From a virus, in UHGV virus genome UHGV-0038496: DNA of 64,000 bases, one strand, 5' to 3'. The stretch's first letter is position 1, and each line of letters opens with the position of its first letter. This document shows, in pieces, positions 658 through 56,142 of this stretch. A model generated the notes under the pieces. That model was not told the origin of the DNA and ran no database searches. It saw nothing but the letters and a program-made list of their open reading frames with translations. Both the position numbers and the translations under genes were made by a program.

Positions 658-678
658 GGAGGGGAAGTATTCCCCTCC
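658..678 (-). other. GC-rich stem-loop without a U-tract, just upstream of an RBS
   Basis: 7-bp stem GGAGGGG/CCCCTCC with 7-nt loop between polymerase exon 2 stop and the RBS of the 387..638 gene. Confidence 0.35.
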
Positions 679-695: not shown

Positions 696-1049
696 TCAAT
701 GGCATTCGCCCCACGAGTATCCCACCAGACCTTCACCTGAGATTTGGAAAGGTGCCTTCATGATGCGAGCTGCTTGGTGGAAGCACTTAACAACCATTTC
801 ACCAACCTTGCAATGAATCAACTGGCATTTGCCGTTTTCGTTTATGATTGGATCATACACGGTTTTACCGTTGCTGTCAACTACTTCTTCACCATTTTCA
901 TCTTTACGGGCTTTTTTGTATTTGTTGCCAGTAAAGATACGACCTTTTGCTTCCTCCTCTGCTTTGAATTTTTCCAGTTCTTCCAGAGTATCAAACTCAT
1001 AAACGGTCTTAAACATGCCGTTATCTGGAATTTCATACTGATATTCATC
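696..1049 (-). CDS. DNA polymerase, family A, exon 2 (C-terminal 117 aa)
   Basis: Reading frame opens after an in-frame stop at about 1125 and ends ...VGYSWGECH, like family A polymerase C-termini (T7 ...NWAICH, E. coli Pol I ...WDQAH, from memory); joining it to exon 1 gives LLVH|DEYQYEI, restoring motif C (HDE). The ORF track calls it as a separate GTG-initiated 118-aa ORF. Confidence 0.65.
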   Translation of the reverse strand, partial: DEYQYEIPDNGMFKTVYEFDTLEELEKFKAEEEAKGRIFTGNKYKKARKDENGEEVVDSNGKTVYDPIINENGKCQLIHCKVGEMVVKCFHQAARIMKAPFQISGEGLVGYSWGECH

Positions 1050-1971
1050 CACATGTTCAAGGAGTTCGTTACGCTCCCCCGCACCTTTACGTGCAAAGCC
1101 ACAAGATTTCTCCTGTGGGTCGGACTATCTCACGTTCCTAGATCAGCCACAGGAACCCTCCCATTTCGACCGCACTTGCTGGCCTACTCTACTCGCTTCT
1201 TCACATCAACCTGTGTTGACGCTATGCTTTCGATAGTCTCTGAACGCGACTACCAGGTGTAGTTTTTAGAGATGTGTTTCCACTGCCTTCTTTGCTTTAT
1301 GGCTCTGACTGTTCCATAAGGATACCCAAGATCCCTAATCTCGCACTGTCTCATACCACTTTGCAACAGTTCACAAATCTCTATCACCTCAGCTTCTGTT
1401 AGCACAGCGTTAGCGTTATACTCGCCTACTGGCCTAACTCTGAGGTCATTATCATAAGCGTGTTTGATATTTTTGCCTTGAGTTGTCCACTCCAGATTCC
1501 AGTATGCATTGTTGTACTTATTCCCATCTTTATGGTTCACATAGGTGAATTTTTCAGGATCAGGATTCGGTACAAAGCATTCAGCAACCAAGCGGTGAAC
1601 ACCTTTTGTACACTGCTTCCCATCAATGAACATGATTACGCAAAGGTAACCTCTACCGTTATCAAAACTGAACATTGTTGTGTGATCACGTTTAGATAAA
1701 GGTATTGTTCCGTCATCAAACACAGTGTATCCATGATAATCAAATGATCTAGCCATTTTAACTACACCTCTTTAGTCTTCGCTGCGGGTTGGCATATTGA
1801 GTTTTACCACATTTTGGCATAAAAGTCAACTTAGCGTTCCCGTCAATTAAAGAGGTTATTCGACATAGATTACTCTATGAAGCCACAATGATGTTTATGG
1901 TAATAGATGATTCTTCTGACACCTAGGTCATACCAAGTTTTATTATCTATTTTCAAGGTCATCAGGTTGCG
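1050..1971 (-). mobile_element. group I intron (about 0.92 kb) in the DNA polymerase gene, carrying an HNH ORF
   Basis: Conserved core elements read on the minus strand in canonical order: P-like AATTGACGGGAACGC (rc of 1834-1848), Q-like AACCCGCAGC (rc of 1781-1790), R-like GTTCAGAGACTATCG (rc of 1231-1245), S-like GAGATAGTCCGAC (rc of 1119-1131). Upstream exon ends in U (CAT), intron ends in G (GTG). Boundaries are predicted, not folded. Confidence 0.7.
1250..1756 (-). CDS. intron-encoded HNH homing endonuclease
   Basis: 168 aa with HNH_3-type motif VHRLVAECF...VNHKDGNKYNN..NLEW.T...N.KHA and a C-terminal HTH-like tail; RBS GAGGTG upstream; lies between the Q and R elements of the intron. 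Confidence 0.8.
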   Translation of the reverse strand: MARSFDYHGYTVFDDGTIPLSKRDHTTMFSFDNGRGYLCVIMFIDGKQCTKGVHRLVAECFVPNPDPEKFTYVNHKDGNKYNNAYWNLEWTTQGKNIKHAYDNDLRVRPVGEYNANAVLTEAEVIEICELLQSGMRQCEIRDLGYPYGTVRAIKQRRQWKHISKNYTW

Positions 1972-4329
1972 ATGAACCAATAAGCCTACCAGATCACACA
2001 ATGAAGCACCACCATTCTGCTGATATGCATTCAGCAAGGAGTGTTTAGAGCGTGTCCAGATGGCATGACCATCGAAAGCATAGATAAATTTCTTACCTGT
2101 CGCCTCCCAGAATTTCTCAAGTGCCTCTTTACGACCTTTCAGGCCGAAGTTGGTATCCCAGAATGCGTCAATTACTTGCTGACCAACCTCTGGCACAACG
2201 TCAAGCATATCCGCTACTTTATCCTTTTGAGCACCATACATCACGCCATAAGTGATTGGCTTACCATCACCACGGGAAACCTCTCTGCCCACAACTTTAG
2301 AGTAGGCTTTGGCGTTCAAAGCATGTGCGTCCCCTTCGCTTATGATCCTGTAATACGCCCCGTTGTCGAAATCGTAAGCACCCCATGCACCTATCAGCTG
2401 TTCAAGGTTGGAACCATCAACACCCAACTGATACTTACCTGGAGCAGGTTTCCAGAGACTACGCATCTCTTTACCCAGCACAACCTTTGGTGAAGGTTTA
2501 GGCTGGTTGGCACATATTTTATGTTTCTGTCGTCCGGTAGCAGTCAAACCGGAGCTTTCTGCTGGTAAGCGGTGATCGATCTGCAATCTCGGATGATTCA
2601 ACAATCCAGTATCAACCTTATCCTCTTTGATTGGGTCGAGTACTGACCTACGGTTACGCAATGACAGCCAGAACACAATGTCTTTTGCCATCTCTCCTTG
2701 CAATCTTGCCAGATTAGGACACAAATGCCCGAAGCTATCTTTCAGCTGTGGGGATGTTGGTAGCCCTCTGGCTTTACGCCGGAACTTGGCGAACACCTCC
2801 TGTTCAACCCTGGGGGAGTTCTTACGACTCATGAACTTCGCTTCTGAAATTTTGAATCGCGCATCCCTGTTCAGTTCACGAATGATCAGGGTACGATACT
2901 CGGATGTTTCCAGTTCATCCATGTACTCCCTTACTTTAGCATCAATTTCAGCATCCGGCAACTGTTTTTTGTGGTAGTCACGGGTTAAATCTTTCGTTCT
3001 CCACATTGTTGGTTGCCAGCCTACAGAGATCAGATAACGCTTGATATCCATCTGGTTATTCATTCTCATGGGCACCATGCAATCAGGCATTTTCTTATCC
3101 TGCAAATCCTTAATTGCCTGCTGCATCAAATCATCCGGCAGAGGTTTAGGTGCTTCCTCTGACCGTGCTGCCCTCAGAAAGTCTGCCTGTTTTTCAGGAT
3201 CAGTGCAACCTCTTTCCTCACACCATTTAACACCTGTAGCACTAACACTCCCATCTTTGTTGAAAGCCCGTTTAGGTGCAGGTTTGAAGTCAAAAGCTGC
3301 TTCATTAACCGGATACCCAAGTTTGTTCTTCAACCAGCTGTAGCCGTGTGAAGAGATACTACCATCTGTATTGAACGGTTTCTGTGGGAACTTAGGCTTC
3401 TGGGCCTCTGAAATTTCTTTCAGTGGCAGCTGTGGTTCCACACGATCAGCGATCTCTTTCATCATGTCATCGCATTTCTGACGTAAAGCTATCGCCCCAT
3501 CAATATCAAAGTAAACACCTTGTCTTGCTTGTAAGCCCATCAAGAAGTGCTGGAGCATACCACGACGCAGAGCATACTTCCAAGTGATTTGTTTGAATCC
3601 GCTGGGTTTCTCTTTGTCTGGATCATACATAAAGTTTTGCATGTCAGATTTGCCGTAGAATGTCCCTTTGGACTCGGCGATCAGTTCGTCCCAGAGCAAT
3701 TCCTGAATGATAACGTCTTCCCATACACGGTCTACGTATTTCCAGAGTGGAAGATTGCGCCAGTCATCAATCTTAACTTTCTGGTTGCCAAGTGCATAGC
3801 CCCAAGCCATCAACCCATGTGGACCTACAGCTTGACTTTTCTTAGTTACCGGATTGAATACCGCCTCTGGACAACCTTTCGGTAACGGGCGATCAGGCCA
3901 CAATATACGACTCATCGGCAAAGTATCAAACAGGTTAACCCTGTGACCGTTGATGGTCCCCATGCAATCTTTATCTTCGAACAGGTCGAAATGAATGCCT
4001 GATAATTTTTCAAATAGGATAAAATCGTAGTCAAAACAGTTGTGACCCACTAAAGCGGTTGGCGACCAATCAGAATGTCCTGTCAGCCACTCTTCCATAT
4101 ACCCAAAGTCAGCAACCCGCACCTGACAGTTTTTGTAAACTGTTTGTTTATTGAGAGCGAATTGTTTCGCTGTTTCTACATCTTCCTCGGAGTAATGAGT
4201 CCTGTCGTTTAGCGGCAGGAATAGTATGAAGTTGTTTTTATGATGTTGTTTGTACAATGTGCAATGATAGTAGAGGTCTTTTTCATCAAGCAACCCACTA
4301 CTTTCTGCGTCAAAAGCCCACAATGCCAT
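1972..4329 (-). CDS. DNA polymerase, family A (T7-like), exon 1 with 3'-5' exonuclease domain
   Basis: N-terminal exo motifs FDAESSGL and HNCFDYD; polymerase motif A VDGSNLEQLIGAW (T7 VDASGLELR); motif B R..GK.ITYGVMYG; the track ORF runs 34 codons into the intron to a stop at 1870 with no HDE motif; RBS AAGGAG before the ATG at 4329. Confidence 0.85.
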
Positions 4330-4386: not shown

Positions 4387-6459
4387 TCAGAACGGACAAT
4401 CTTCATCCTCAGGGAACTCCTGTTGGATTACGCTTTGATCGTCCCCTCCATCATCCTCTTCTTCTCCTTCCGCGTCAACAGCTTTTGGTTGAGGTTTCAC
4501 ATCGGCGGTAACTTTACCTTCTGGAGTTTCCACAACAACATGCTCTTCATTGTCAAACATATCTTGCGGCCTCCAGACAATATCTCCATCTTTGTTCAGG
4601 AAGAAACCTGTCTCCTTATCCCACACCCAGTCGCTGGCATCGGAGAATTTACCAGTCTCAGGGTTCATAATCAGCACATCAGCTATGCCTAAGGTTTTAG
4701 CTGGCCTGTTTTTCAGGCTAACTAAACGAACACGCCCACGGGACCTGTCAGGCATCTCTTCTGCTTCTACCCCTATGACAACCCAACTGAGTTGCTCCAT
4801 CGATCCACTACCACGAAGGTTTTCTTTACGGACAGGATACCAGAACGGTAAAGCCCTGCCTTCTTTATCCTTCGGTGGGATAATCTCTGTGCGACGCAAG
4901 TGGGCAATCGCCAGGATGAACACATTAAATTGCTTACAGAACGCTGCAAGCTGTGTCATTGCAAGGTCTAACTCTTTGCGTTCATCTTTTACATTCAAAC
5001 CAGAGATAACCATCGACAGGTGATCCAGCACGATGTAACGACAATGATACAAGCACACCATCTGTTTCAGTTTTGTGATCAGGTCGTTTACAGGTATTGA
5101 ACCGAAGTGCCGGAATACCCTGATTTTGTCAGCATCAACCCAGGCTTTGTGGATATCAAAGTGCTCCTGCTCGGTTAGATACTTGCTTGGATCTTCCATG
5201 AAATTCTTGATATCGTATCCCAGCTGGTTAGCATACAGTGAGTTGATGGCTTCTTCTGGGTCTTCTTCCAGGTGAATCATACACAACCTGTCTTCTGGGT
5301 CGTAGTCATCAGCTTTAGCCACCGTAGGATCCATCAGGTATTTAGCTATCTGGTGCTCAATTTTCTTGGCTACCGTAGTCTTACCACCACCAGAAGGACC
5401 AGTCAGCATAACCAGTGTGCCTTTATGCAAACCTTTCAGCATTTTCTGTAGTTTAGGGAACTCTGCCCCAATATCAACCCCGTTGGTGGATTTTTTACGT
5501 AAATCTTCGATTGAGAAATCACTCAGGCCTGCTACAGCATCTGGCACGTATTTGATCGGGTTTTTGAACATATCGTGAATTTGATCATACTTTTTAGCCT
5601 GGAACAAATCACGGATATCTTTGTAACCCTCTGGATCATTTACTTCACTCGGATACTGCACATGGAAAACGTTGTCAGCCATCAGGAAAGCTGCAACATT
5701 GTGAGTGGCTTCAACACCTTTGGTGACATGTTTTAGCTTCTCAACATCGTTTGCAGCGTCGTTGTCGAAGGCCAGGACAATCTCATCAAAGCTACGAATG
5801 AACTTCTCGTTGTTGGCAAAAGCATCTACGGCATTCGCGCAACCACAGTTAAGCCCTACCACGTTGATTGTGGGAAAACCTTTAGCAGAACCACCATCCT
5901 GCACCGCTTTAATACCGTCAAGAACGCTTTGTGCCCACGCTTTAGCTTTTTTATTTGATGATGGATCTGTAGCTATTTTCCTCACCATCATCCATTCAGT
6001 CTGCCACGCAGCAATAACGTCGCCTTCACCTTCGCAGACAATGATTTTACGATGGTCCGAGCCTTCCCCAACCATTTTCTGACCAAAGAACTGGCTGTTG
6101 GCCTTAACAACAGAAACTACGGTAAAATGCCCCTTCTGCTCTTTTGGGATAGTCCAGTCACGTTTCTTGTAACCAGTCAGGTTGCCATACTTATCGTAAT
6201 ACGGAAAGTATGTAGCAACAATATCCACCCCGTTCTCTTCTGAAACTGCGGAACGGATCCCGAAGTATTTAGCAGCTTCTAAACCTATGTTTTGCTGCGG
6301 AACTTTCAGTATCTTTGTAGAAGCCAGAACACTTTCGACTGTTTCTTGCTCTTTCTCGTCTCTGTAATCTCTTCTCACACTCCCTCCGCTTCTCCATTTT
6401 GTTGCTTGTGGGTTAGGTTGACCAAACTTGGCATAAGCTGAACTAAAGAAATTACCCAT
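4387..6459 (-). CDS. DNA primase-helicase (T7 gp4-like; TOPRIM plus DnaB-like helicase)
   Basis: TOPRIM-like IIVCEGEGDVIAAW, Walker A MLTGPSGGGKTT, helicase motifs (VLDHLSMV, AIAHLRR); 690 aa. Confidence 0.85.
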   Translation of the reverse strand: MGNFFSSAYAKFGQPNPQATKWRSGGSVRRDYRDEKEQETVESVLASTKILKVPQQNIGLEAAKYFGIRSAVSEENGVDIVATYFPYYDKYGNLTGYKKRDWTIPKEQKGHFTVVSVVKANSQFFGQKMVGEGSDHRKIIVCEGEGDVIAAWQTEWMMVRKIATDPSSNKKAKAWAQSVLDGIKAVQDGGSAKGFPTINVVGLNCGCANAVDAFANNEKFIRSFDEIVLAFDNDAANDVEKLKHVTKGVEATHNVAAFLMADNVFHVQYPSEVNDPEGYKDIRDLFQAKKYDQIHDMFKNPIKYVPDAVAGLSDFSIEDLRKKSTNGVDIGAEFPKLQKMLKGLHKGTLVMLTGPSGGGKTTVAKKIEHQIAKYLMDPTVAKADDYDPEDRLCMIHLEEDPEEAINSLYANQLGYDIKNFMEDPSKYLTEQEHFDIHKAWVDADKIRVFRHFGSIPVNDLITKLKQMVCLYHCRYIVLDHLSMVISGLNVKDERKELDLAMTQLAAFCKQFNVFILAIAHLRRTEIIPPKDKEGRALPFWYPVRKENLRGSGSMEQLSWVVIGVEAEEMPDRSRGRVRLVSLKNRPAKTLGIADVLIMNPETGKFSDASDWVWDKETGFFLNKDGDIVWRPQDMFDNEEHVVVETPEGKVTADVKPQPKAVDAEGEEEDDGGDDQSVIQQEFPEDEDCPF

Positions 6460-7186
6460 TGAGTTTGCTCCTTACAACGGGTTCGTTGGCTTCAAATACT
6501 GCTAATGCCCAACCACGAGGTGTCAGGCTCCTGATCATTTTGGTACGAGGAGATTTTCCTCCCAGCTTGGTATGTTGGAAAGAATACCCATTTACATCAC
6601 AAATCTGCGGCACAGGTCGTTTCTCAGGGACAACAAAACCATTTCCGAACCATCCACAGGTTAGCTTCGGATAAGCATCCCTGGGCTTAATCAGGTCAGG
6701 GAACCACGGGTTCTGATCGTCTTCCGGCAGATAGCCACCATACTCATACGGATGGAACTTGTAGTCCGGTTTACGCCACATATTGGACATAACACCAACA
6801 GGGTTCTCCACATGCCACGGACAATTATACATGTTACCCAGCGTTTCTGCAATACGTGCATCTTTTACAGCATTGACCTGAATCAACGGATCTTTTTGTA
6901 GTTTTTTCTTGAAATGCGCTGCCCCAGATACCGCTAAGTGGGTACATGGTGGAAACGACAGGATGAAATCTGGTGCAGGATACATCCCCAGGGTTTCTTG
7001 TGGAAACCACGGGTCAATCCAGTAGTCGATGTACTGAATGTTAGGGTGTTCCTCTACTACCTCTGCATAGCTCCCGTGATCTGCCCCTTCTGCGTTGAAG
7101 CAGAAGCACAGATACCCTGCATCAGCCCAGGGTTTGACAGCAATATCAGAGCCATTGAATAATGCCCACACTACGCCTTGCTTCAT
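6452..7186 (-). CDS. hypothetical protein (about 244 aa)
   Basis: Track ORF 6452..7258 trimmed to the ATG at 7184-7186 (MKQGVVWALFNG...) because it has an RBS GGAGGG 9 nt upstream and the longer reading frame runs through a terminator hairpin. Confidence 0.5.
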   Translation of the reverse strand: MKQGVVWALFNGSDIAVKPWADAGYLCFCFNAEGADHGSYAEVVEEHPNIQYIDYWIDPWFPQETLGMYPAPDFILSFPPCTHLAVSGAAHFKKKLQKDPLIQVNAVKDARIAETLGNMYNCPWHVENPVGVMSNMWRKPDYKFHPYEYGGYLPEDDQNPWFPDLIKPRDAYPKLTCGWFGNGFVVPEKRPVPQICDVNGYSFQHTKLGGKSPRTKMIRSLTPRGWALAVFEANEPVVRSKLNG

Positions 7187-7212
7187 ACTATTTAGCCCTC
7201 CAAACACAAAAA

Positions 7213-7232
7213 CCCCGCCCTTTCGGGCAGGG
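7213..7232 (-). terminator. rho-independent terminator
   Basis: GC hairpin CCCCGCCC-TTTC-GGGCAGGG followed on the minus strand by TTTTTGTGTTTG; downstream of the 7239..7712 gene. Confidence 0.6.
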
Positions 7233-7238
7233 CTGTTA

Positions 7239-7712
7239 TTACTCGACGCGAATCCCAATTGTATACTCTGTTGAGACTAATGTCAAGTCTATGTTTAAAA
7301 TTTTATTCAGTTGTTCGAAATGTTCCTCTGTCAGATAAATCTTTTCAGAGGCTGTGCCAGTTAAATGATACTTCAGGAACCCAGGGTAATCGCTTATAGC
7401 GTAGCGTAGGCACCGCATTTCAGTTGGGTTGATGTAACCGTCATGCATCACCATCTGAGCTACGCCCAGTCCAGCATAGAAGCTCTGAGACTCTTTCAAG
7501 TAGTGCTCCCATACTGTTGTTTCTTTTTTAATCAATCCGAAGAACTTCTCTTCGACATAACGTTTGTTTTTAAGATATTTCAGAATCCTGTTACCAATCA
7601 CTGCAAGATCACGGAATTTAAGAGCAGCTTTTTGTAGCGTTTCCCGTGGTACTTCAATCAGGTCTTGTGCAGCAGGACCAATCTTCCAGAGATAGTCGCT
7701 TTCGTAAATCAT
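7239..7712 (-). CDS. hypothetical protein
   Basis: 157-aa ORF; overlaps neighbours in operon-like fashion. Confidence 0.5.
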   Translation of the reverse strand: MIYESDYLWKIGPAAQDLIEVPRETLQKAALKFRDLAVIGNRILKYLKNKRYVEEKFFGLIKKETTVWEHYLKESQSFYAGLGVAQMVMHDGYINPTEMRCLRYAISDYPGFLKYHLTGTASEKIYLTEEHFEQLNKILNIDLTLVSTEYTIGIRVE

Positions 7713-18549: not shown

Positions 18550-20004
18550 GTGGACGCAAGAAGTTCAGAACTGATTTTAGCACAGAAACCAGAAGCTCTA
18601 CGTATGCTCCAGGGTGCTCGCATGTGGCTCATGGAAAGACTGAGCTTCTACGGTGTGCTCCTGTCAGGCTTACAATTTGTTGAGAACCACACATGGTGTG
18701 ACACTATTGCCACAGACCATAAGCGGATTTACTACAATCCAGAGTTCATCGTGGGTGTTTGTCAGGAACGCCGTGCTATCATTCTGCCTAAGTGCGATGA
18801 TAAAATGAAAGAACAGCTGGATGCTTTCTATGCACCTAAAACGCTTAAAGAGGTTGCTTTTCTCCTGTGTCATGAGATAGGTCACATCATTGCTGATCAC
18901 ATCAGCCGTGGTAAAGCCTTCTCTGATCACAACCTGTTTAACCAGGCTGCTGACCACGTTATTAATACGGGGCTGATGGAAGATTTAGCTGAACCGCCAT
19001 GTGCAATGTTCCCACACGGCATTCGCACACAGCTGAAAAAAGGCCAGCCGTTTGCATTCCTTGAGTATTGCTATTGTGATAAGAAATACCACGGGTGGAT
19101 AACTGAAAAAGTTTATGCAGACCTGGAAAAACAACAACAGCAGCAACAAGGTAAAGGACAAAGTGCCAGTGGTGGTGGTCTACGAGCCACAGATACTCAC
19201 ATGGGTGACGGACAAGGCCAGTCTGACAACCTCAGTGAAGCTATGGGCTACGAAAAAGGCAACCAGCCACCAATGACTCAGGCAGAGAGAGATGCAGCAA
19301 TGCAGGACTCTGGGGACATGATGGAAGCTGCTATGCAGGCGGCAGGTGGTGAAGGTCCGGCACAGGTGCGTGAGTGGATCAAAAATCGCAATAAGCCTAT
19401 TATCAACTATCTGGATGTGATTCGCCAGCGTATGTTGTCACACCGGAAAGCTGATATGACTTATCGCCGTCCGGCACGTCGCTCTGGTGCTTTAACTCAC
19501 ACATTACGTAACAAAGGGGCTATCAACAATCGCCAGTCTGTTATTCTCCCAGGTCGCAACCAGGAGAAAACGATTGACATAGTGGTTGCATTCGACGTAT
19601 CAGGCTCTATCTCTCAACGAACTCTGAAACGTATCACTTCAGAAATCGGTGGGTTGTGCAGCCTGTATAAAGAGTTCAAAGTTACAATGTTCTGTTGGTC
19701 AACAGAAGTTGGTGATGTTCAGGTATACACTCACCAGAATATTGCACAGATGCCTGACTACCAGATTAAGTCTACGTTCGGTACTCGCGCAGGCTGTGTG
19801 TTTGAATATCTGGATAAACATCTGTCTGATGTTCAGGATGTGATTATCTTTACTGACCTGTATCTTGAATCAGATTTTGAAAAAGAGGTTGACAGGAACA
19901 ACTGGGATAAGTATAATACGCTCTGGATCAGGACAGAAGGTGGTAACAAGAACTATACGCCATCTTTTGGCAGAACTATTGATTTGATTGAAAACGCTAA
20001 ATAG
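18550..20004 (+). CDS. putative zinc metallopeptidase-like plus von Willebrand factor A domain protein
   Basis: GTG start with RBS GGAGGA; HExxH motif LCHEIGHIIADH in the N-terminal half; vWA MIDAS-like VAFDVSGSIS in the C-terminal half; Q/G-rich low-complexity linker. Confidence 0.65.
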   Translation: MDARSSELILAQKPEALRMLQGARMWLMERLSFYGVLLSGLQFVENHTWCDTIATDHKRIYYNPEFIVGVCQERRAIILPKCDDKMKEQLDAFYAPKTLKEVAFLLCHEIGHIIADHISRGKAFSDHNLFNQAADHVINTGLMEDLAEPPCAMFPHGIRTQLKKGQPFAFLEYCYCDKKYHGWITEKVYADLEKQQQQQQGKGQSASGGGLRATDTHMGDGQGQSDNLSEAMGYEKGNQPPMTQAERDAAMQDSGDMMEAAMQAAGGEGPAQVREWIKNRNKPIINYLDVIRQRMLSHRKADMTYRRPARRSGALTHTLRNKGAINNRQSVILPGRNQEKTIDIVVAFDVSGSISQRTLKRITSEIGGLCSLYKEFKVTMFCWSTEVGDVQVYTHQNIAQMPDYQIKSTFGTRAGCVFEYLDKHLSDVQDVIIFTDLYLESDFEKEVDRNNWDKYNTLWIRTEGGNKNYTPSFGRTIDLIENAK

Positions 20005-20015
20005 GAGACACAGTT

Positions 20016-20267
20016 ATGGCAACATCTGTATCTTTAAGAGAGCTTGAACCTGTGGTCAAACCTCTCAGAAATTTTAAACCGGGCACGGTTGTAGAAATCC
20101 TGGTGGCAGCTGAAGCACGCAATGTGTTAATCATGGAGGATAACTCTTATGACGGTGGCATCTACACTGTAGACCTGGAAGACTTCTCTTTACAAATTAT
20201 GGACGGTGATTTATCTGCAACAGAAGTTAATGCAGAAATCGTCCTTTGCGGATACGCTCGTCATTAA
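20016..20267 (+). CDS. hypothetical protein
   Basis: 83-aa ORF following the previous gene by 11 nt. Confidence 0.45.
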   Translation: MATSVSLRELEPVVKPLRNFKPGTVVEILVAAEARNVLIMEDNSYDGGIYTVDLEDFSLQIMDGDLSATEVNAEIVLCGYARH

Positions 20268-20282
20268 CAGGGGGACCCAGCC

Positions 20283-20717
20283 ATGCTGACTAAACGCCAA
20301 TGCCAATCTTCGGGCGAAAAACAATGGAAGAAGGAGTGGTTTGGGGTAGAAGTATGCCAGCTTCGGCTGGGTACTTACCTTGACTACGTTTACTACCGTA
20401 ATAACTATGAGATTGTTCAGTACGAGGCCTTTTACACTAAACATCTGATAGAGATTAGCCGTAAGATTCAGGGGCCTGTGGGGACTAAAGAAGACTGGAA
20501 AGTCATCGTGCCGATGGATATGATCTCTGATCCGGCTCACCCAACAGATGATGAAAATATGATGGTCGAATTGATGTTAGGTCTTGACGACCTTGAAATT
20601 GCGATCTATCATATGTGTGTTGAGGCAGCTGCTGCTGACTTTGAAGAGAAGCTCGACGAGCAGGAATTACAAAGTCTTTTAACAGAAAAACTTAAAGAAT
20701 ATTTTACGGGGGATTGA
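20283..20717 (+). CDS. hypothetical protein
   Basis: 144-aa ORF. Confidence 0.45.
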   Translation: MLTKRQCQSSGEKQWKKEWFGVEVCQLRLGTYLDYVYYRNNYEIVQYEAFYTKHLIEISRKIQGPVGTKEDWKVIVPMDMISDPAHPTDDENMMVELMLGLDDLEIAIYHMCVEAAAADFEEKLDEQELQSLLTEKLKEYFTGD

Positions 20718-20718
20718 T

Positions 20719-20955
20719 ATGTTTGCTCGCAAGCCAGAAATGGATAAAGATGTGTTGGGTCACCTGATGCGTTGCCGTCTGGTATGGCAAGAAGCTCGTC
20801 AAGACCGTAAAGTCGTTGTAGTCAGTAACAGTGACGATCCATTCAAGAACTATCGTGAGATGATGGATCTGTACATCCGTCGTGGCCTTGTCAAAGTGGT
20901 TAAACTGGATGACCTGACTGAAGAAGACCTGGAAGGTACGGTGGTAGAACTATGA
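20719..20955 (+). CDS. hypothetical protein
   Basis: 78-aa ORF, 1-nt gap from the upstream gene. Confidence 0.45.
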   Translation: MFARKPEMDKDVLGHLMRCRLVWQEARQDRKVVVVSNSDDPFKNYREMMDLYIRRGLVKVVKLDDLTEEDLEGTVVEL

Positions 20956-21545
20956 GCAACGTAGAATTTTTTACTAACAATCTCCAGAGGGACCTGGATA
21001 CTTTTCTCGAATCTGAGTGGAATGACTACTGGGATAATTATTTTGCCAGTTCTCGCTTCAATGCCTTCAAGATGATATTCGAAAAGTATATCTTCCCAGT
21101 ACCACGGTACTACAGGGAAGAAACTTACACTACTAAGTGTAAAGTGATGATAAGGGCTTTGAAGAACAATGATCATCCCAGTGTAAGTGATCTTCGCAAC
21201 ATGGTCCACGATGTTGATGGTGAAATGCACGTCAGAATCTGGAGAAAACGCGAGAAGCACAAGAAAGAGCTACTACAGTTCGGAGTTGACCTCCTGACTA
21301 ACCGTAATGCTTGTGGCAATAACGGTGGCCCTTGCGTGATGGAAAAACGTGCACCAAAACTGTTGGATCGCTTACTGCGGGATCCGATGGGGATGGATAT
21401 GCTGCGTTTGAGCCTGTTCAAATACATCAAAAAGTGTGTGGATGGTGAGGGATGGGCAATGTCTGCCAAACACTACGGTGAGGATGATGACCCAAACGAA
21501 GGTATCAACCTTCTGCTTCAATTGTTGGAGGGTAATGATGAGTGA
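20952..21545 (+). CDS. hypothetical protein
   Basis: 197-aa ORF with ATGA overlap with the upstream gene. Confidence 0.45.
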   Translation: MSNVEFFTNNLQRDLDTFLESEWNDYWDNYFASSRFNAFKMIFEKYIFPVPRYYREETYTTKCKVMIRALKNNDHPSVSDLRNMVHDVDGEMHVRIWRKREKHKKELLQFGVDLLTNRNACGNNGGPCVMEKRAPKLLDRLLRDPMGMDMLRLSLFKYIKKCVDGEGWAMSAKHYGEDDDPNEGINLLLQLLEGNDE

Positions 21546-21981
21546 TCCATACAGCAAAGAGCAACTGAAAGCAGACTTCGGTAAAATCTTGATGGAAGAT
21601 GCTGACTGGTACTTCCACAAACAAGGTTGGTACGCCAAGTCAACAGCCGCGACAGGTAGTGTCGGTGTCAACATCGTGTGGAAGCTGATGGAAAACTTTG
21701 ATCAGACAGGGAACATTATCGCCCATATTAGTGAGAATCAGGTCCACATGAGCCGTGTGAGAATCCTGGAAGGCTTGCTGGAGTCTGGGGATAACAACAT
21801 CCAACACGCTAAAGCAGCTTTACAGGATGCCTACACAGAGATAATTATAGCGACCTTAAACCAACGCAGACGCTACGAGAAGGCTTTTATCCACCACTCG
21901 GCAGAGTATTTACTGTATGGCAGGATGGATGGTTATGGTCCACTTCTGGCGCTAAGAGATAAAAACTGCACCAGAGAATGA
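21538..21981 (+). CDS. hypothetical protein
   Basis: Track ORF 21436..21981 trimmed to ATG at 21538 (MSDPYSKEQ...) preceded by GGAGGG; the longer form would overlap about 100 nt of the upstream gene. Confidence 0.45.
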   Translation: MSDPYSKEQLKADFGKILMEDADWYFHKQGWYAKSTAATGSVGVNIVWKLMENFDQTGNIIAHISENQVHMSRVRILEGLLESGDNNIQHAKAALQDAYTEIIIATLNQRRRYEKAFIHHSAEYLLYGRMDGYGPLLALRDKNCTRE

Positions 21982-22148
21982 TGGAATCACCTTGTGGGCC
22001 AGGGGTTGTGGAATTGGTGCTGGCAGAATTTATCAGGCCGTACGTGGAAGAACAACCTCTTCACACAATGCCACCTGGACAATACGGTAAAGGTGAGTAT
22101 ATCAACGAACCAAGTAAACTGATTGATCTGATTTTGCAGTTTGACTAA
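21978..22148 (+). CDS. hypothetical small protein (56 aa)
   Basis: ORF below the track cutoff, read by hand (MMESPCGPGV...LILQFD); ATG overlaps the upstream stop. Confidence 0.3.
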   Translation: MMESPCGPGVVELVLAEFIRPYVEEQPLHTMPPGQYGKGEYINEPSKLIDLILQFD

Positions 22149-22168
22149 AAAAAGAAAGTAAAAATCCC

Positions 22169-22197
22169 TTGACATGGAATGATGGTTGTGTTAAGAT
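22169..22197 (+). promoter_or_regulatory. sigma70-like promoter (TTGACA, 17-nt spacer, TAAGAT)
   Basis: -35 TTGACA 22169-22174, -10 TAAGAT 22192-22197; the track ORF 22179..22403 starts inside this promoter, so its true start is taken as 22251. Confidence 0.5.
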
Positions 22198-22250
22198 GCT
22201 TCCATCAAATGAAGAGAAGCACAGTTCAACAGATAAATAAGGAGTCAGCC

Positions 22251-22403
22251 ATGAAATACAATATCGACAATTTAGCTTGTTTCAAAGAAGATTTTGCAGA
22301 TTCTATGGATCAGGCTTGTCCGGGTGAAATTCCTGTACAAGGTGCAGACAAAGATGAAGTAAAAGAGTTCTGCATTGATAATCTTGGCGCATTCGATAAA
22401 TAG
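22251..22403 (+). CDS. hypothetical small protein (50 aa)
   Basis: ATG at 22251 (MKYNIDNLACF...) with a strong RBS AAGGAG 7 nt upstream, downstream of the promoter. Confidence 0.5.
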   Translation: MKYNIDNLACFKEDFADSMDQACPGEIPVQGADKDEVKEFCIDNLGAFDK

Positions 22404-22414
22404 GGGGGTGGGTT

Positions 22415-22558
22415 ATGAAAATAAGACTCGAAGTTTTAGCACTGGTTGCAATGGGTTTGATAGTTCTGGGTGTTCATGCTATGGATGTTGATTGGGGCGC
22501 AGTAGCTGAGAGCATGGCTCAGGCACATCCGATGGGCCTGATGCAAATGAACTTCTAA
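22415..22558 (+). CDS. hypothetical small hydrophobic protein (47 aa)
   Basis: Hand-read ORF MKIRLEVLALVAMGLIVLGVHA... with G-rich RBS; followed directly by a terminator. Confidence 0.35.
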   Translation: MKIRLEVLALVAMGLIVLGVHAMDVDWGAVAESMAQAHPMGLMQMNF

Positions 22559-22566
22559 CTGTATAG

Positions 22567-22592
22567 GCCCCGCTTCGGCGGGGCTTATTTTT
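22567..22592 (+). terminator. rho-independent terminator
   Basis: GCCCCGC-TTCG-GCGGGGC hairpin followed by TTATTTTTGTCTTTT. Confidence 0.7.
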
Positions 22593-22629
22593 GTCTTTTC
22601 CACACAACTGATTGAGTGAAAGAAAACTG

Positions 22630-22658
22630 TTGACATGCCCCGTGCGTTGTGGTATAAA
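22630..22658 (+). promoter_or_regulatory. sigma70-like promoter (TTGACA, 17-nt spacer, TATAAA)
   Basis: -35 TTGACA 22630-22635, -10 TATAAA 22653-22658, upstream of the ATG at 22690. Confidence 0.55.
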
Positions 22659-22689
22659 TACTCCATCAACAGAACGAAGGACCACTACG

Positions 22690-22965
22690 ATGACTAAAGA
22701 ACAGTTACGCTACCTTGAATACGGCCTGTCGATGGTGCAGGAAGGTCTGTCTGCTGCATACCGCATGAATATGCAAGCCAAAGCTAACGATGCCCGTATC
22801 AACCAGATCCTGGATATGGACTTTGCCGAGTTCACAGTTCATGCCAAAGAGATCCCACAGCTGATAAAAGAAAATGAAGAACTGGATCGCAAGATTCATT
22901 GCATCATTGAAGCTGCGGAAAACACACATGCTTTTGCATACAAATTTTTGAAAAATAAGGAGTAG
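22690..22965 (+). CDS. hypothetical protein (91 aa)
   Basis: Start moved to ATG at 22690 (MTKEQLRYLEYG...) with RBS GAAGGA, downstream of the promoter. Confidence 0.5.
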   Translation: MTKEQLRYLEYGLSMVQEGLSAAYRMNMQAKANDARINQILDMDFAEFTVHAKEIPQLIKENEELDRKIHCIIEAAENTHAFAYKFLKNKE

Positions 22966-22968
22966 GCT

Positions 22969-23460
22969 ATGGATTCTGGCTACGATGACGGTAGTGGGGA
23001 TATTTTTGATTACAGCAGTTTAACCACTTCTCTGCCGTTTGAAACACGTAATGGCACGAAGATTGCTGCATTTGACTTCGATAATACGTTCAATGCAGAG
23101 CCTTTCATCTTCGCCTCATTTGTTGGCGCGTTGCAGAAGGCTGGTTGGTATTGCTGCTTTGTCACATTCCGGTTCCCTGAACAGGACAGCTGTGACATTC
23201 GAATGTGGGCTGAAAAGCTGGGTATGGATATCTTCTACACTTCTGGTGTACAGAAAGCAGCTTACATGGCTACGATGGGCATCTTCCCAGATATCTGGGT
23301 TGATGATAACCCAGCAGGTATCCCAGCTAAAAACCAACTGGAGTTCGCCAGGGATGAAGTGATGTATAAACGTAAAGCTAAACAGAATAACTGGCCTCTT
23401 GTTATAGAGGACTACCCAGAACCTGAAGCTGAACCAGAGGAGTACTTACATGAAAAATAA
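22969..23460 (+). CDS. putative HAD-superfamily phosphatase / nucleotidase-like protein
   Basis: Motif I-like AAFDFDNTF (DxDxT) near the N-terminus; 163 aa. Confidence 0.4.
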   Translation: MDSGYDDGSGDIFDYSSLTTSLPFETRNGTKIAAFDFDNTFNAEPFIFASFVGALQKAGWYCCFVTFRFPEQDSCDIRMWAEKLGMDIFYTSGVQKAAYMATMGIFPDIWVDDNPAGIPAKNQLEFARDEVMYKRKAKQNNWPLVIEDYPEPEAEPEEYLHEK

Positions 23461-23635
23461 AATCAGACAACTCTACCACTTCGTGATGTGGAGAGGTTTA
23501 CGTGCATGGGCTAAAGCTCATCGTCGCTTCTTCGGTTACGGTGATGCTTATATCCATCTACATCTGGCTGCTATTCAGCACCACGATGAATACATCGAAG
23601 CAATCGTTCTTGGGGACAGAGACTTCTTACATTGA
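23450..23635 (+). CDS. hypothetical protein
   Basis: 61-aa ORF overlapping the upstream gene end. Confidence 0.35.
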   Translation: MKNKIRQLYHFVMWRGLRAWAKAHRRFFGYGDAYIHLHLAAIQHHDEYIEAIVLGDRDFLH

Positions 23636-23646
23636 TAAAAATTTTG

Positions 23647-23674
23647 TTGACAGGGACGTTAAATTGTGTATAAT
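23647..23674 (+). promoter_or_regulatory. sigma70-like promoter (TTGACA, 16-nt spacer, TATAAT)
   Basis: -35 TTGACA 23647-23652; consensus -10 TATAAT 23669-23674 preceded by TG; about 35 nt upstream of the RBS GAGGAG and the ATG at 23708. Confidence 0.6.
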
Positions 23675-23707
23675 ACACCACATCAAAGAGAGATGAGGAG
23701 TGCAGAA

Positions 23708-23893
23708 ATGAGTAAACGTTATCCTTCAGACAATCCTTATGTTATCGCACTTGGTGCACTGTGTGTTATGCTTGTACTTGTTGCAGTGATTGTGGCAGAC
23801 TATCTGGACATTCAGCAGCAGATCGAGTGCATGAAGCTGTTAAAAGCTAAAGTTGCAGCATTCCAGGCAGATATTTTCAACATTACACACTGA
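23708..23893 (+). CDS. small membrane protein (one predicted transmembrane helix)
   Basis: MSKRYPSDNPYVIALGALCVMLVLVAVIVADYL...; hydrophobic helix; RBS GAGGAG. Confidence 0.5.
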   Translation: MSKRYPSDNPYVIALGALCVMLVLVAVIVADYLDIQQQIECMKLLKAKVAAFQADIFNITH

Positions 23894-23901
23894 GGCCGGA
23901 T

Positions 23902-24042
23902 ATGGACTTGTATTTCATGGTAGACTTAGCTCTGCAAGGTTTTCTTCCAGGTGTCTTCCTGGATGCTCCACCACTCTGGTTGGCCTTCTGGTTGATGATT
24001 GTGGTAGTGATTAACGGTATTCTGGATGCATGTAAAAAGTGA
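23902..24042 (+). CDS. small membrane protein (46 aa)
   Basis: Hand-read ORF MDLYFMVDLALQGFLPGVFLDAPPLWLAFWLMIVVVINGILDACKK; RBS GAGG. Confidence 0.4.
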   Translation: MDLYFMVDLALQGFLPGVFLDAPPLWLAFWLMIVVVINGILDACKK

Positions 24043-24051
24043 GGTGCCAAA

Positions 24052-24249: not shown

Positions 24250-24282
24250 TCCTTCCTCTTAATCATCTCCTCAAACAAAAAA

Positions 24283-24301
24283 GGGGGCCATCAAGGCCCC
24301 C
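24283..24301. terminator. bidirectional rho-independent terminator at the convergence of plus-strand early genes and the minus-strand structural cluster
   Basis: Hairpin GGGGGCC-ATCAA-GGCCCCC flanked by an A-run on the plus strand (a U-run for the minus-strand transcript) and by AAATTGTTT on the plus side. Confidence 0.7.
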
Positions 24302-24327
24302 AAATTGTTTCCTCTGTTATTATGCTA

Positions 24328-30159: not shown

Positions 30160-30166
30160 ATAGTAA

Positions 30167-30188: not shown

Positions 30189-30194
30189 AATTAA

Positions 30195-52979: not shown

Positions 52980-54088
52980 TTAGTTAGTAGGACTTGCAAA
53001 CAGGTTAATATCTTTCCAATTTTCCCATTCAAATCTTGCATCCAGCATTTCTTCGAACTGAGCAGCGTCAAACTCGATTGTAATTTTACCCTCACCAACT
53101 TCCAGAGGAATTGGAGGAATTTCGAAGGATGGTAACGGATCCAAAGGTGTACTTGGAGTTGGATTAGCTCTGTAGGTAATCGGGTTAAGCATACGGTAAT
53201 CCAGGCCAAGGAAAGATGAAATGCCGTTAACACCATCGACAAGCCACTGCGGATGTTTGGTCACGTCAGTTTCCTGGTGGTAGTTTTGCATCCAATCATC
53301 CAACATACCAGCACCTTCGTACCCCATGTAGCCCAGAGCTAATGGTCCTTTCCATTTCCACAGTCCACCAAGTAACCGTGCAAACAATCCTTTCTTAGCC
53401 ATGGCTGCTGCACCACCCGCAGCTGCACCACCTGCGGCGGCACCACCGAGAGCACCTGCAACACCTCCGGCAGCTTTAATCATACCCAGGGTTGCGGCAA
53501 CAGCTTTGACGATTCTCAGCAATTTCCATACGGCGTTAACAACAACTAAGATGGAGAAAGCATAGCCTACCCATTTAGCTTTGCTGAATGTTTCATCAAC
53601 AGTGTCACTTGTATCTTTGACTTCTTTTTTCAGCAGACCAAAGTGGTCTTTGACTTGCAACCACCAGATACGGATACTGACAATCGTGTTGTTCAATTCA
53701 CCAACAATGTCGTTCAGACCCTGGATAAATCCAGATACAAACTCACCAGCCTGCATGATCATTGGGGTGAATGTTTCTCCTGTGCGGATCAGGGTGTAAT
53801 AAAACTCGGTGAGTTCATCTGACCATGTGGTGAACAGTTTTTGTTTAGTCAATTCGATGAAAGTTTTCAAACGGTTTTCAGCCAGAACGTTAGATTTCTG
53901 CATACGTTCATAACCAGCAGCTGACGCTTCGTTCATGTACTTAGCAACGTATTTCATCATTTTGGCTGTTTTGACCTGGCCTTTCTGCATCATGTCCATG
54001 AATTGTTCCATAGACAGCTCAGACAGGTTGAAAGCCTCTTTTGTTGCTTTAATGAACGGCTCGTAAGCACCTGGCATTGCTTCAGCTA
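52980..54088 (-). CDS. tail tape measure protein, exon 2
   Basis: Track ORF is TTG-initiated with an in-frame stop just upstream at 54108-54110; contains a Gly/Ala-rich hydrophobic segment (GGVAGALGGAAAGGAAAGGAAAMAKKG) typical of tape measure proteins; predicted 3' splice site after G at 54089. Confidence 0.6.
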
Positions 54089-54917
54089 CCAATGTCCAGA
54101 CAGTTCGCTACGCTGTCCCGGTGTGCTAAGACACCCGCCACACATTTCTGTGTGGAGCAGACTATATCTTCTCTGGATAACCAGAGCCAACCATTTCAGA
54201 GGCGCTTGCCTCTTACACCGCTACACTCATCACGGTTAGTCGTTGAGCACATAACTTATAAATCTTTCAGCAGTTTAGACCATGCTTTCTTAGTCTTGAT
54301 TCGAACAATTGCTGATCTGCAAGCACCAAATTCTTCCATCAAATCTGTTGTATTCTCAAACCGCCTGTTATAAATTTCGATAACCTCTTCTGCTGTGAGC
54401 TTATGATTGGCATTTGACTCACCAGAGGCATCATTCAGGCCATTTGCAAAAGCATGTTTCTGATTGCCAGATCGAGTAACATACTCCAGATTATCTTTAT
54501 GGTTGTTTGCTTTATTACCGTCCTTATGGTTAACTTCCATCCCAGGTTGTGGAGGTTCACCAAGGAAAGTAAGGGCAACTATTCTGTGAACAAGATACAA
54601 CACACATTTGCCGTTTACCCGAAAGTAAACGCGTTTGTAACCATTGTGTATTGTCTGCTCAGTCAACTGCTTCCGTGTGTTTCTTCTTGTAGAGAATATT
54701 GCACCGTCCTCTCTACAGAAGTACCCATCGTGACCAGGAACTGGTCGGATTTCTAAGTTACTTCGCTGCGGATTATCCATTGTTACATCCTCCAAACTTT
54801 TTACCATACCCCGAGTAGTTACTTCGGGCCATAAACATGTTACCACATTTATTTGGTATTTGGAAGGCTTTAGGAGCTTCCCGCAATTAGGTTGGTTTTA
54901 TAACAGCTAGTATGTCA
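54089..54917 (-). mobile_element. group I intron (about 0.83 kb) in the tape measure gene, carrying an HNH ORF
   Basis: Read on the minus strand: P-like AATTGCGGGAAGC (rc of 54876-54888), Q AATCCGCAGC (rc of 54765-54774), R-like TCAACGACTAA (rc of 54236-54246), S AAGATATAGTCT (rc of 54159-54170). Candidate P1: exon AACAGU pairs with intron GCUGUU, with U-G at the splice site. Intron 3' end GGACAUUGG is homologous to the polymerase intron 3' end GAACAUGUG. Boundaries predicted only. Confidence 0.65.
54256..54780 (-). CDS. intron-encoded HNH homing endonuclease (paralogue of the 1250..1756 product)
   Basis: HNH_3 motif VHRIVALTF...VNHKDGNKANNHKDNLEYVT...NQKHA; shared LTAEEVIEI block; start taken as ATG at 54778-54780 with RBS GGAGGA (track ORF extends upstream to 54846). 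Confidence 0.8.
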   Translation of the reverse strand: MDNPQRSNLEIRPVPGHDGYFCREDGAIFSTRRNTRKQLTEQTIHNGYKRVYFRVNGKCVLYLVHRIVALTFLGEPPQPGMEVNHKDGNKANNHKDNLEYVTRSGNQKHAFANGLNDASGESNANHKLTAEEVIEIYNRRFENTTDLMEEFGACRSAIVRIKTKKAWSKLLKDL

Positions 54918-56142
54918 ACTGTTGTTTTAGTTCCTCAGACATTACCTGTCCTTTACCAAGCATTTGCTGTATCGCCATAATACCACGCTGATATTTTACT
55001 TCATCAGCACCATATGACGCAGCATATTGCGAATAAGCAGAGAACAGATCACGGACTTCCTGCCCTGTCATTTGGTTTTTGGCGTTTACTGCCATTTGAG
55101 AGTAGCCTTGCAGACCTGATTTCAGGTCGAAGCCTAATCTCATAGCTTCACCTTGTACGAATGCAACTTCCGAGTTAGCTTTCGTAGGATCACCCATAAC
55201 GTTGGTAAGAGCAGCACTCGCACCTTCCATCATGTGACCGGATTTGTTAACACTGACAATTGCAGAGAATGCGGTGTACGCTTTAGTCAAATCCATGACT
55301 GTTGTTCTTAATTTATTAAAAGCGGTGCTCAGAGTCATGGTTCCAGCAGCAGCATTAGCAAACCCCTTCTGCATTGCAGCGATCTGGGCGTTGAAAGTTG
55401 ACTTACCTATCAACCCTTTTGCATATTGCTGTTCAACCTGACGGTAGCCACCTAACATATCCCTAAAATTAGCCCCATAACGAGCTGTCAGACGCGTTGA
55501 CATGTTGGTAAGGTGTGTTAGCCTATCCATACCCACATTATTGCGTTTGGGCGTTCCTGAGCTGCCATTTTGCTTGTGCCATCTGTTCATTGCAGCAGTC
55601 TGGGCACGAACAAGTGCTGGGTTGGAAGCTACACCACCCATGTTGGGGTTACCTGGGATATATCTGAAGGTATTTGCTCTGGACAGAGCACGGGGTGAGA
55701 CTGGTTTGTTGGAGAAGTAGGAACTACCTAAGCCACCACTTTTCTTAGCCAGTTTGGATTGTTCCTGATAGAATTTACGCATTCTCACCAATTCAGGATC
55801 TTTGGCAGTCATCTGACCGACAACCTGTTTCCTTCTGGCGTTCTCACGTTTTTCTATCGCAGATCGTACAGCAGCTTCACGTTTAGCCTGGGATACAGCT
55901 TCCTGATGCATACGGCGTTGCTGTTGCAACTGTTTATTCTGTACCCTCTGAACAATCTGACCAGTCTTCTCCATCGATGCTTGCCAGGCTTTCAGAGGAT
56001 TCCCCTTTCCCAAAGAATCGCCCAGCTTTGTAAACTCCCTGCCTAATCCTTTAATTCTTTCAATAGCTTTTTTATAGCTATTGTTATCGATCTCAAATGT
56101 AATTCGGTTTGTGGTTGTGGCAACCACTTTGTTACCAGCCAT
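54918..56142 (-). CDS. tail tape measure protein, exon 1
   Basis: Long alpha-helical, Q/A/K-rich N-terminal region; RBS AGGAGAG before ATG at 56142; the track ORF continues three codons into the intron to a TAG at 54907. Confidence 0.6.

Follow-up and report, generated by a model that had tools for sequence, protein, structure and literature searches.

The polymerase locus and its splice junction

The DNA considered here, which we call the window, is the whole 64,000-nt stretch of the virus genome UHGV-0038496, and its subject of interest is a DNA polymerase gene that appears to be divided by a group I intron. The window belongs to a metagenome-assembled phage contig of ~140.7 kb (ENA ERZ27287477), and all coordinates for the intron and the polymerase are given in window numbering and refer to the minus strand. 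Three minus-strand open reading frames (ORFs) lie within 696-4329, at the positions listed in an earlier interpretation made from the letters alone (the sequence-only reading): 4329..1870 (819 aa), 1756..1250 (168 aa, HNH), and 1052..696 (118 aa, called from a GTG). We regard it as very likely that these ORFs reflect a group I intron at 1896..1050 (847 nt) which carries an I-HmuI-like HNH gene in its P6 loop, divides a T7-like family-A polymerase gene between the motif-C His and Asp-Glu, is spliced, and spreads by homing.

Exon 1, as delimited by the ORF list, alignment to T7 gp5 structures, and contiguous homologues, would extend from 4329 to 1897 (811 codons) and include the exonuclease region, motif A (GVDGSNLEQ), and motif B (GKPITYGVMYGA), ending with RRIIYYH at U1897 (AUC UAU UAC CAU). 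The predicted intron starts with AAACAUCAUUGUGG and ends with GAACAUGUG, its terminal G lying at 1050. Exon 2 (1049..696) would comprise 117 codons and a stop codon, its first two codons, GAU GAA, encoding the motif-C Asp-Glu. The unspliced RNA reads through into 8 intron codons (KHHCGFIE, within 1896..1870) and then a UAA at 1872-1870, and the frame of the 819-aa ORF accordingly ends GGASLCDLVGLLVHRNLMTLKIDNKTWYDLGVRRIIYYHKHHCGFIE before its stop; the 33 codons that follow LLVH in this ORF (RNLMTLKIDNKTWYDLGVRRIIYYHKHHCGFIE) contain no motif-C Asp-Glu, as the sequence-only reading had stated. The downstream frame begins V-DEYQYEI and, again as described there, terminates in VGYSWGECH. Conceptual splicing gives 811 + 117 = 928 aa, reading GVRRIIYYH^DEYQYEI (a caret marks the junction), with a predicted ligated RNA junction of UAUUACCAU^GAUGAAUAU and a junction-spanning peptide of IIYYHDEYQYEIPDNGMFK.

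A phmmer comparison of the 928-aa protein with solved structures yielded a match to T7 gp5 (6n7w, 2ajq; E≈1e-12). In this alignment, GVDGSNLE of motif A is paired with GIDASGLE, RGDGKPITYGVMYGA of motif B with RDNAKTFIYGFLYGA, and RRIIYYHDEYQ of motif C with AYMAWVHDEIQ, and motif C is present solely after the corrected splice. An alignment to T7 gp5 had been proposed as a check on a 903-aa spliced product; for the 928-aa protein, it does run through motifs A, B, and C. As judged by these alignments, the polymerase is a divergent family-A (T7 gp5-like) enzyme, and 'DNA polymerase family A' is the annotation carried by its relatives.

The polymerase of the Vequintavirus DrSchubert, which is intron-less, reads CDLVGILMHHQMVKRGWYDEGVRRIIYYHDEYQLQVPD, and its empty-site DNA is ATCTATTACCAT^GACGAATATCAG or, equivalently, TATTACCAT^GACGAATAT. 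All six interrupted relatives are broken at this same point (TATTACCAT^AAATAACATTGTGGC and TG^GATGA(A/G)TA), the empty-site consensus is TATTACCAT^GAYGAR, and intron-less alleles run uninterrupted through GLLVHRNL(V/M)TLKID…GVRRIIYYHDE(Y/F)QYEI. An uninterrupted junction is also found closer to the window, in protein P0003 (1259 aa; Logan ERR7620024, locus L016), which falls in the same 90% cluster and is 92% identical to the 928-aa product. P0003 is contiguous across the junction (GLLVHRNLVTLKIDGETWYDLGVRRIIYYHDEFQYEI, RRIIYYHDEFQYEI), with an empty-site DNA of TTTATTACCAT^GATGAATTTCAG, also given as TTATTACCAT^GATGAATTTCAG and AATAATTTATTACCAT^GATGAATTTCAGTATG, and L016 thus holds an intron-minus allele of the window's own lineage. 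Splicing of the EmilHeitz gene at the equivalent junction produces a 925-aa protein that exactly matches GenBank QXV77979.1, annotated as a two-piece join. The 10 same-site introns other than that of the window begin directly after YYH, AYH, or DYH, and homologous introns all end in UG. Excision at the corrected site thus restores the frame and leaves 928 aa that are collinear with the intron-less alleles of both DrSchubert and P0003.

The sequence-only reading had instead set the 5' junction after the CAU at 1974-1972, taking the His of LLVH as that of motif C, and had proposed a 922-nt intron from 1971 to 1050, the join GLLVH^DEYQ, and a 903-aa polymerase. This CAU does end in U, and joining LLVH to DE does create a VHDE-like string, but LLVH lies 25 residues before motif C and aligns with LWIIKTEEML of T7. 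The 25 codons that the longer intron would remove (RNLMTLKIDNKTWYDLGVRRIIYYH) are exon, being conserved and contiguous in every intron-less allele, and alignment of the 903-aa version to intron-less DrSchubert leaves a gap of 20-25 aa just before HDE. Moreover, no guide sequence pairs with GGUUCAU, the Rfam model places P1 at 1906-1883, and the start points of all ten other same-site introns, together with the YYH^DE junction of the GenBank EmilHeitz join, fall at the later site. The 922-nt version is therefore effectively refuted by the comparative data, and we assign it next to no probability; the true 5' junction would lie 75 nt (25 codons) downstream, after the CAU at 1899-1897 (IIYYH). 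Other elements of the sequence-only reading survived this correction: exon 1 ends in a U, which is however U1897, the intron ends in a G, and the 3' splice site follows G1050, with exon 2 starting at GAU GAA. Its core claim of a group I intron with an HNH ORF splitting a family-A polymerase at motif C, and its view of the site as one suited to homing, likewise stand, with only the 5' boundary displaced.

RNA structure and the endonuclease gene

The 847-nt intron can be folded into a group I structure that begins in exon 1. P1 (1900..1883) pairs exon CCAU (1900-1897) and intron AA with the guide UUGUGG (1888-1883), placing a U1897·G wobble at the splice site, and a candidate P10, read from the letters only, would pair the loop CAUC (1893-1890) with GAUG of exon 2. 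The 5' core (1879..1783) contains P2 (1879-1875/1868-1864), the 5' strand of P3 (1855-1850), and P4, which has a bulged A (1845-1839/1788-1783), with a P5 arm between the P4 strands. An extended P6 arm (1782..1246) holds the endonuclease gene and is built from P6 (GCG/CGC, 1782-1780/1248-1246), P6a (ACUA/UAGU, 1776-1773/1252-1249), and P6b (AGGUGUAGUU, 1769-1760, with AACUACACCU, 1264-1255), the last a long-range stem that appears in unconstrained minimum-energy folds. In the 3' core (1245..1050), P7 (1238-1234/1127-1123) is followed by the P7.1 hairpin (1220-1205), a GUA linker (1187-1185), P7.2 (1184-1181/1171-1168), the 3' strand of P3 (1162-1157), P8 (1156-1151/1139-1134), P9 (1118-1111/1106-1099), P9.1 (1094-1091/1084-1081), P9.2 (1078-1074/1064-1060), and the terminal G at 1050. 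The sequence-only reading had reported P-, Q-, R-, and S-like elements together with the HNH ORF, and both were recovered, the core elements of this type being AAUUGACGGGAA, AACCCGCAGC, GUUCAGAGACUA, and GAGAUAGUCCG. An unconstrained minimum-energy fold of the 867-nt precursor yields P1, P2, P6b, P7.2, P9, P9.1, and P9.2.

To assess this structure by covariation, we aligned 11 same-site introns with the variable P6 arm removed (alignment A2: the window, FFH2, EmilHeitz, navn, W70, K54_rec5, CB7, phiTE, Aeromonas phage 2L372D, Avunavirus 18-1-2, and Pseudomonas phage SPA01) and scored a hand-derived structure consisting of P1, P2, P3, two pairs of P4, P7 as a pseudoknot, P7.2, P8, P9, P9.1, and P9.2. 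Standard pairs filled 99.5% of the 555 cells, and both partners had changed in 26 of the 51 pairs. The observed pairing, the number of pairs or cells changed on both sides, and the covariation score were not reached in any of 500 shuffles, although the tally of further pair types was unremarkable (422/500), and when the 3' partners were slid by 1-3 columns as a control, pairing fell to 36-43%. Compensatory changes occur in all five P2 pairs and in three P3 pairs, the P3/P7 pseudoknot is supported, and two pairs of P7.2 (GGCC/GGUC) covary, while the U·G pair at the P1 splice site is invariant in 11/11 sequences. The bulged A shifts the register of P4 and leaves four of its pairs unscored in the automatic alignment; counted manually, P4 covaries, with CGGG/CCCG in some sequences and CUGG/UCAG in others. 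These results show that the group I core is complete in the window, where every tested helix is fully paired, and, given that the corrected join also restores the frame and a T7-type motif C, the strong covariation of the fold points to more than chance.

The region between P7 and P3' bears on the class of the intron. The P7.1 hairpin is present in the minimum-energy fold and shows a compensatory U-A to C-G change relative to the homologous intron of the IMG/VR contig L021, and GUAG at the GUA linker is invariant in the alignment. Subgroup IA2 is characterized by P7.1 and P7.2 between P7 and P3', linked by G-U-A (PMC3428280). Since both hairpins were found, joined in this manner, the intron probably belongs to subgroup IA2. 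We also considered the R-like element GCGAAGACUAAAGAGGU, which precedes the ORF, as the true P7/P3', an arrangement that would place the ORF in P8. This was ruled out, as GCGAAGACUAAAGAGGU is absent from ORF-less homologues and is part of P6/P6a/P6b, and P3' is the covarying GGGAGG at 1162-1157.

Within the P6 arm, 1756..1250 encodes a 168-aa putative homing endonuclease of the HNH type. The product matches Pfam HNH_3 at 25.8 bits (cut-off 24.8), phrog_59 'HNH endonuclease' at E=2e-41, and I-HmuI, as represented by the sequence of its crystal structure (PDB 1U3E), at E=3.5e-8, its catalytic block VNHKDGNKYNNAYWNLEW being aligned to VDHKDGNKDNNLSTNLRW. The polymerase intron of SPO1 has I-HmuI as its nicking enzyme, and the HNH residues of the 168-aa ORF, which is intact, are conserved relative to I-HmuI. 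The Shine-Dalgarno sequence of the endonuclease gene, GAGGUG, is sequestered in P6b, where it pairs with the last codons of the ORF, so that translation of the endonuclease from the folded intron would be expected to be limited. This agrees with a statement on the ΦI, W31, and Pf-WMP3 introns (PMC3428280).

By analogy with the family, the window intron would be removed by two-step, guanosine-initiated transesterification. The polymerase gene would be transcribed through the intron and the RNA would fold into P1–P9.2, the fold derived from the comparative analysis. Free guanosine would then attack after U1897, positioned in P1 by the U·G pair, and the freed 3'-OH of exon 1 would next attack after the terminal G1050, ligating the exons. 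The resulting mRNA would encode the 928-aa polymerase, in which motif C is whole again. If splicing failed, translation would stop 8 codons into the intron and produce an 819-aa polymerase without the motif-C carboxylates, implying that splicing would be obligatory for replication.

The three ORFs might instead represent a split gene that functions without splicing, with two polypeptides (819 aa and ~117 aa) encoded on either side of the endonuclease gene, as is reportedly the case for NrdA and mobE of Aeromonas phage Aeh1. The downstream frame can start at the GTG at 1052, and the report on Pectobacterium phage CB7 describes HNH inserts that fail to splice (PMC7344957). However, no ribosome-binding site is evident at this GTG, and such an arrangement would place the catalytic Asp-Glu on a different fragment from the motif-C strand. 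The complete group I core and its covariation across relatives, the U·G pair and terminal G at the boundaries, and the splicing of the same-site CB7 homologue also speak against it, and we consider a split gene highly improbable in comparison with a spliced intron.

Mobility, distribution, and other interruptions

Comparison with the Vequintavirus FFH2 indicates that the insert and its host gene have different histories. At the nucleotide level, the intron as a whole is 86.5% identical to that of FFH2, with 90.7% in the 5' core, 87.2% in the endonuclease gene, and 81.5% in the 3' core, compared to 69% and 64% in exons 1 and 2, respectively. The 3' core is 84% identical to the intron cores of Vequintavirus phages. 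Protein identities to Vequintavirus are 90-91% for the endonuclease and 72% for the polymerase. That the insert has been conserved more strongly than the essential gene it interrupts indicates, on the basis of these identities, that the intron has spread laterally between phage genera, and the window copy looks like a recent import from Vequintavirus (86% versus 64-69% for the exons). No clear gradient indicative of exon co-conversion tracts was detected beside the intron in comparison with Vequintavirus (73% and 68% at the junction, 62-80% elsewhere).

Three states of the site are found in the window's lineage: empty (L016), occupied by the intron with its endonuclease gene (the window and L022, 98% identical), and occupied by an intron without the gene (L021). 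The L021 intron (2753-3063, 311 nt) has the same ends as that of the window, with exons that are 94-95% identical, and further ORF-less introns occur at the same site in L003 (3355-3630, 276 nt) and L010 (2364-2680, 317 nt); in these forms, a short P6 hairpin takes the place of the endonuclease arm. The site is also occupied in Certrevirus, Plateaulakevirus, Pakpunavirus, and Avunavirus phages and in several IMG/VR contigs, where the HNH genes differ or are absent. On balance, we slightly favor the broader view that one intron backbone resides at the His^Asp-Glu boundary in at least five myovirus groups (the uncultured lineage, Vequintavirus/Avunavirus, Certrevirus, Plateaulakevirus, and Pakpunavirus), where it is combined with three or more endonuclease configurations or lacks an ORF, all three stages of the homing cycle being represented in the window's lineage. 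If so, and taken together with the intein-like insert in motif B and the further upstream interruption seen in polymerases of this lineage and with the second HNH intron in the tape-measure gene (all described below), the phage would constitute a natural system for studying competition among selfish elements and module exchange within one essential gene.

The coexistence of empty, full, and ORF-less states, along with an intron more conserved than its exons, is consistent with homing. By analogy with I-HmuI, I-BasI, and I-PfoP3I, the HNH enzyme would nick polymerase alleles that lack the intron, brought in by co-infecting relatives, close to the insertion site, and the intron would be copied in as the nicked allele is repaired.

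The ORF-less derivatives in close relatives (L021, navn, and 18-1-2) imply that loss of the endonuclease gene does occur, and they raise the question of whether the window intron is itself a decaying relic, splicing poorly or carrying a dead endonuclease, in a genome that is defective or, as its source is a metagenome assembly, misassembled. The full pairing of every tested helix and the intact endonuclease ORF with its conserved HNH residues are not what decay would predict. In addition, identical 819-aa and 168-aa products are present on several independent ~140-kb contigs, and the same intron is found in L022. We thus think it very improbable that the window holds a decaying element and retain the interpretation of a spliced, mobile intron.

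Several observations weigh against this interpretation. A scan of the whole window with Rfam at the gathering threshold (50 bits) returned no match, and Intron_gpI (RF00028), which the sequence-only reading had suggested as a check, scored 24.9 bits on the window (E=9e-4 on 1.7 kb) against that gathering score of 50. The permissive-mode match spans 1906-1588, with P1 (1906-1883) at the corrected junction and the P3-P4-P5 region well aligned, and the low score may be due to the 538-nt insert containing the ORF in P6, between P4' and P7; the ORF-less same-site introns of phage navn (276 nt) and L021 do exceed the threshold, at 64.7 and 56.9 bits, respectively, so that the check failed for the window and succeeded for its homologues. 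P10 is weak or absent in relatives, and P5 and P7.1 are too variable in length for covariation testing in A2. The polymerase falls below the gathering score for Pfam DNA_pol_A (24.7 versus 34.3 bits), and its family-A membership consequently rests on the T7 gp5 alignment. Finally, we infer nicking specificity and homing from relatives, and the window's phage is represented by a metagenome-assembled contig.

Other interruptions were observed in the polymerase genes of relatives. Close relatives from the same 90% cluster (proteins P0003, P0004, and P0007) have different polymerase interruptions in place of the motif-C intron. In P0003 (L016 1501-5280), a 331-aa in-frame insert lies in motif B, GKPITYA[CLPKD…HITITGN]CLYGAQKDK, and it appears intein-like in that it starts with Cys, has Asn-Cys at its C-terminal junction, and contains two LAGLIDADG-like motifs; no Pfam or PDB match to this insert was found. 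The polymerase of one relative is broken after SRQKHRVI into a 608-aa product followed by a 638-aa product, a break that, from exon lengths, would fall at roughly the relative position of the upstream polymerase intron annotated in CB7 and K54_rec5. Free-standing HNH genes adjoin the polymerase gene, upstream or downstream, in relatives (L001 680-1414, L003 200-934, L006 244-753, and L016 5304-5963); none does so in the window.

The gene for the tail tape measure in the window is divided by a second putative group I intron (54089-54917, minus strand), likewise with an HNH gene, between the ORFs 56142..54907 and 54092..52980, which match positions 1-431 and 430-795 of the 800-position phrog_5255 profile. 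Its Rfam Intron_gpI score is also sub-threshold (24.8 bits), and its inner ORF matches HNH_3 at 50 bits. By comparison with the uninterrupted EduardKellenberger gene, exon 1 would end at U54918 (P1 ACAGUU/AGCUGU) and the intron would comprise 829 nt ending in CAUUGG, with the spliced product reading EELKQQ^LAEAMPGAYEP and a predicted RNA junction of CAA CAG U^UA GCU GAA (54918^54088). The tape-measure homologues listed are all single-piece, including 118 records with 90-95% protein identity, and the 3' core of this intron had no match covering at least 80% of its length among 50,697 phage records. The IA2 core signature of the polymerase intron (GAGUAGAGUAGG…UCGAAAUGG) was also seen in introns of other genes, among them Erwinia phage AH06 (L012, a 275-kb phage), where the host gene is annotated as thymidylate synthase, and several IMG/VR loci, including contigs of 250-310 kb (L020, L030, and L035) whose downstream exons, PFN(I/V)A.YA.LT, are thymidylate-synthase-like by eye only.

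Upstream of the polymerase gene, and abutting it, is a primase/helicase gene (6459..4387), with a DNA methyltransferase gene (phrog_757) at 7258..6452. The order of primase/helicase followed by polymerase, together with similarity, puts the phage near the Vequintavirinae (rV5-like phages), and a 12-kb test stretch of the window (20000-32000) had no megablast match among the 50,697 phage records. Many records of the MG0656xx series ('Campylobacter phage C7, A135, C12 …', with C. jejuni labels) match the window approximately as well as the Vequintavirus genomes of E. coli do, in the polymerase, intron, and tape-measure regions alike, and their host labels look doubtful. About 20 nt past the polymerase stop codon, a G+C-rich hairpin without a U-run, GGAGGGGA-AUAC-UUCCCCUCC (658-678, minus strand), may be a transcript-end or stability element; its Rfam match to Clostridiales-2 is weak and at chance level (17.5 bits). 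A match to the Hfq-binding RNA isrL at 63598-63676 on the minus strand (27.1 bits versus a gathering score of 35, E=8e-4, 79 nt across a 345-position model) is probably due to chance.

Comparison with known polymerase introns

If the corrected junction is right, the polymerase of the window phage and many of its relatives has been miscalled as two 'DNA polymerase' fragments and an HNH gene, when the correct product is one 928-aa enzyme, and misplacing the splice site by 75 nt would lose 25 conserved residues. The locus adds a further case in which a homing intron targets the best-conserved codons of a gene essential for replication, and the higher conservation of the intron than of the gene around it is a record of lateral movement from one phage genus to another.

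The closest known systems are the Vequintavirus (rV5-like) coliphages, including EmilHeitz (bas49_0077, annotated as a join) and FFH2 (gp078/gp079/gp080). These share the insertion point YYH^DE, the same core, an intron that is 86% identical, and, within P6, the 168-aa HNH gene (90-91% protein identity); they differ in the host polymerase, which is 72% identical as protein and 64-69% identical in the exons as nucleotides, and the window derives from an uncultured lineage. The junction is already annotated as a join in the Vequintavirus genomes of the BASEL collection; most GenBank records list a pair of 'DNA polymerase' CDSs and no join. In the paper on the rV5 genome, introns are mentioned for the terminase gene only, and not for the polymerase gene.

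Intron 2 of the Certrevirus phages CB7 and phiTE (HNH gene CB7_50 in Pectobacterium phage CB7) is likewise inserted at RRIIYYH^DEYQLEV and has a homologous 3' core. RT-PCR and Sanger sequencing have demonstrated in vivo splicing of the two HNH introns in the polymerase gene of CB7 (Buttimer et al. 2020; PMC7344957). CB7 differs from the window in that its HNH gene is another, shorter one (127 aa), whose start overlaps P4' (MGNQQ…), and in having an additional upstream polymerase intron that the window lacks.

In E. coli Pol I, motif C is formed by H881-D882-E883. By the numbering of that enzyme, Kong et al. (2012; PMC3428280) place the polymerase introns of the T7-like phages ΦI and W31 at site 881 and those of SPO1, SP82, Bastille, and Pf-WMP3 at site 674. 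Accordingly, the ΦI/W31 intron (I-TslI) appears to share the insertion boundary of the window intron, between His and Asp, and it too belongs to subgroup IA2, with an HNH gene that is in P6a; its host gene differs in being that of a podovirus, and no T7-like match was obtained by blastn. The SPO1, SP82, and Bastille introns (I-HmuI, I-HmuII, and I-BasI) are also group I introns in phage family-A polymerase genes, and I-HmuI is a detectable homologue of the window endonuclease (PDB 1U3E, as above). They differ in that they occupy site 674, in the fingers region, rather than 881, come from phages of Gram-positive hosts, and have no detectable nucleotide similarity to the window intron.

Phage polymerase genes that carry group I introns with HNH genes have been on record since the SPO1 case of 1990. 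With HNH-bearing polymerase introns, this insertion site, an annotated join, and an RT-PCR-verified homologue in CB7 all known, the window intron is nothing new in principle. Of most interest in relation to these systems are the homing-cycle states found within one lineage, the intein-like insert and the other polymerase interruption of its relatives, and the HNH intron of the tape-measure gene.

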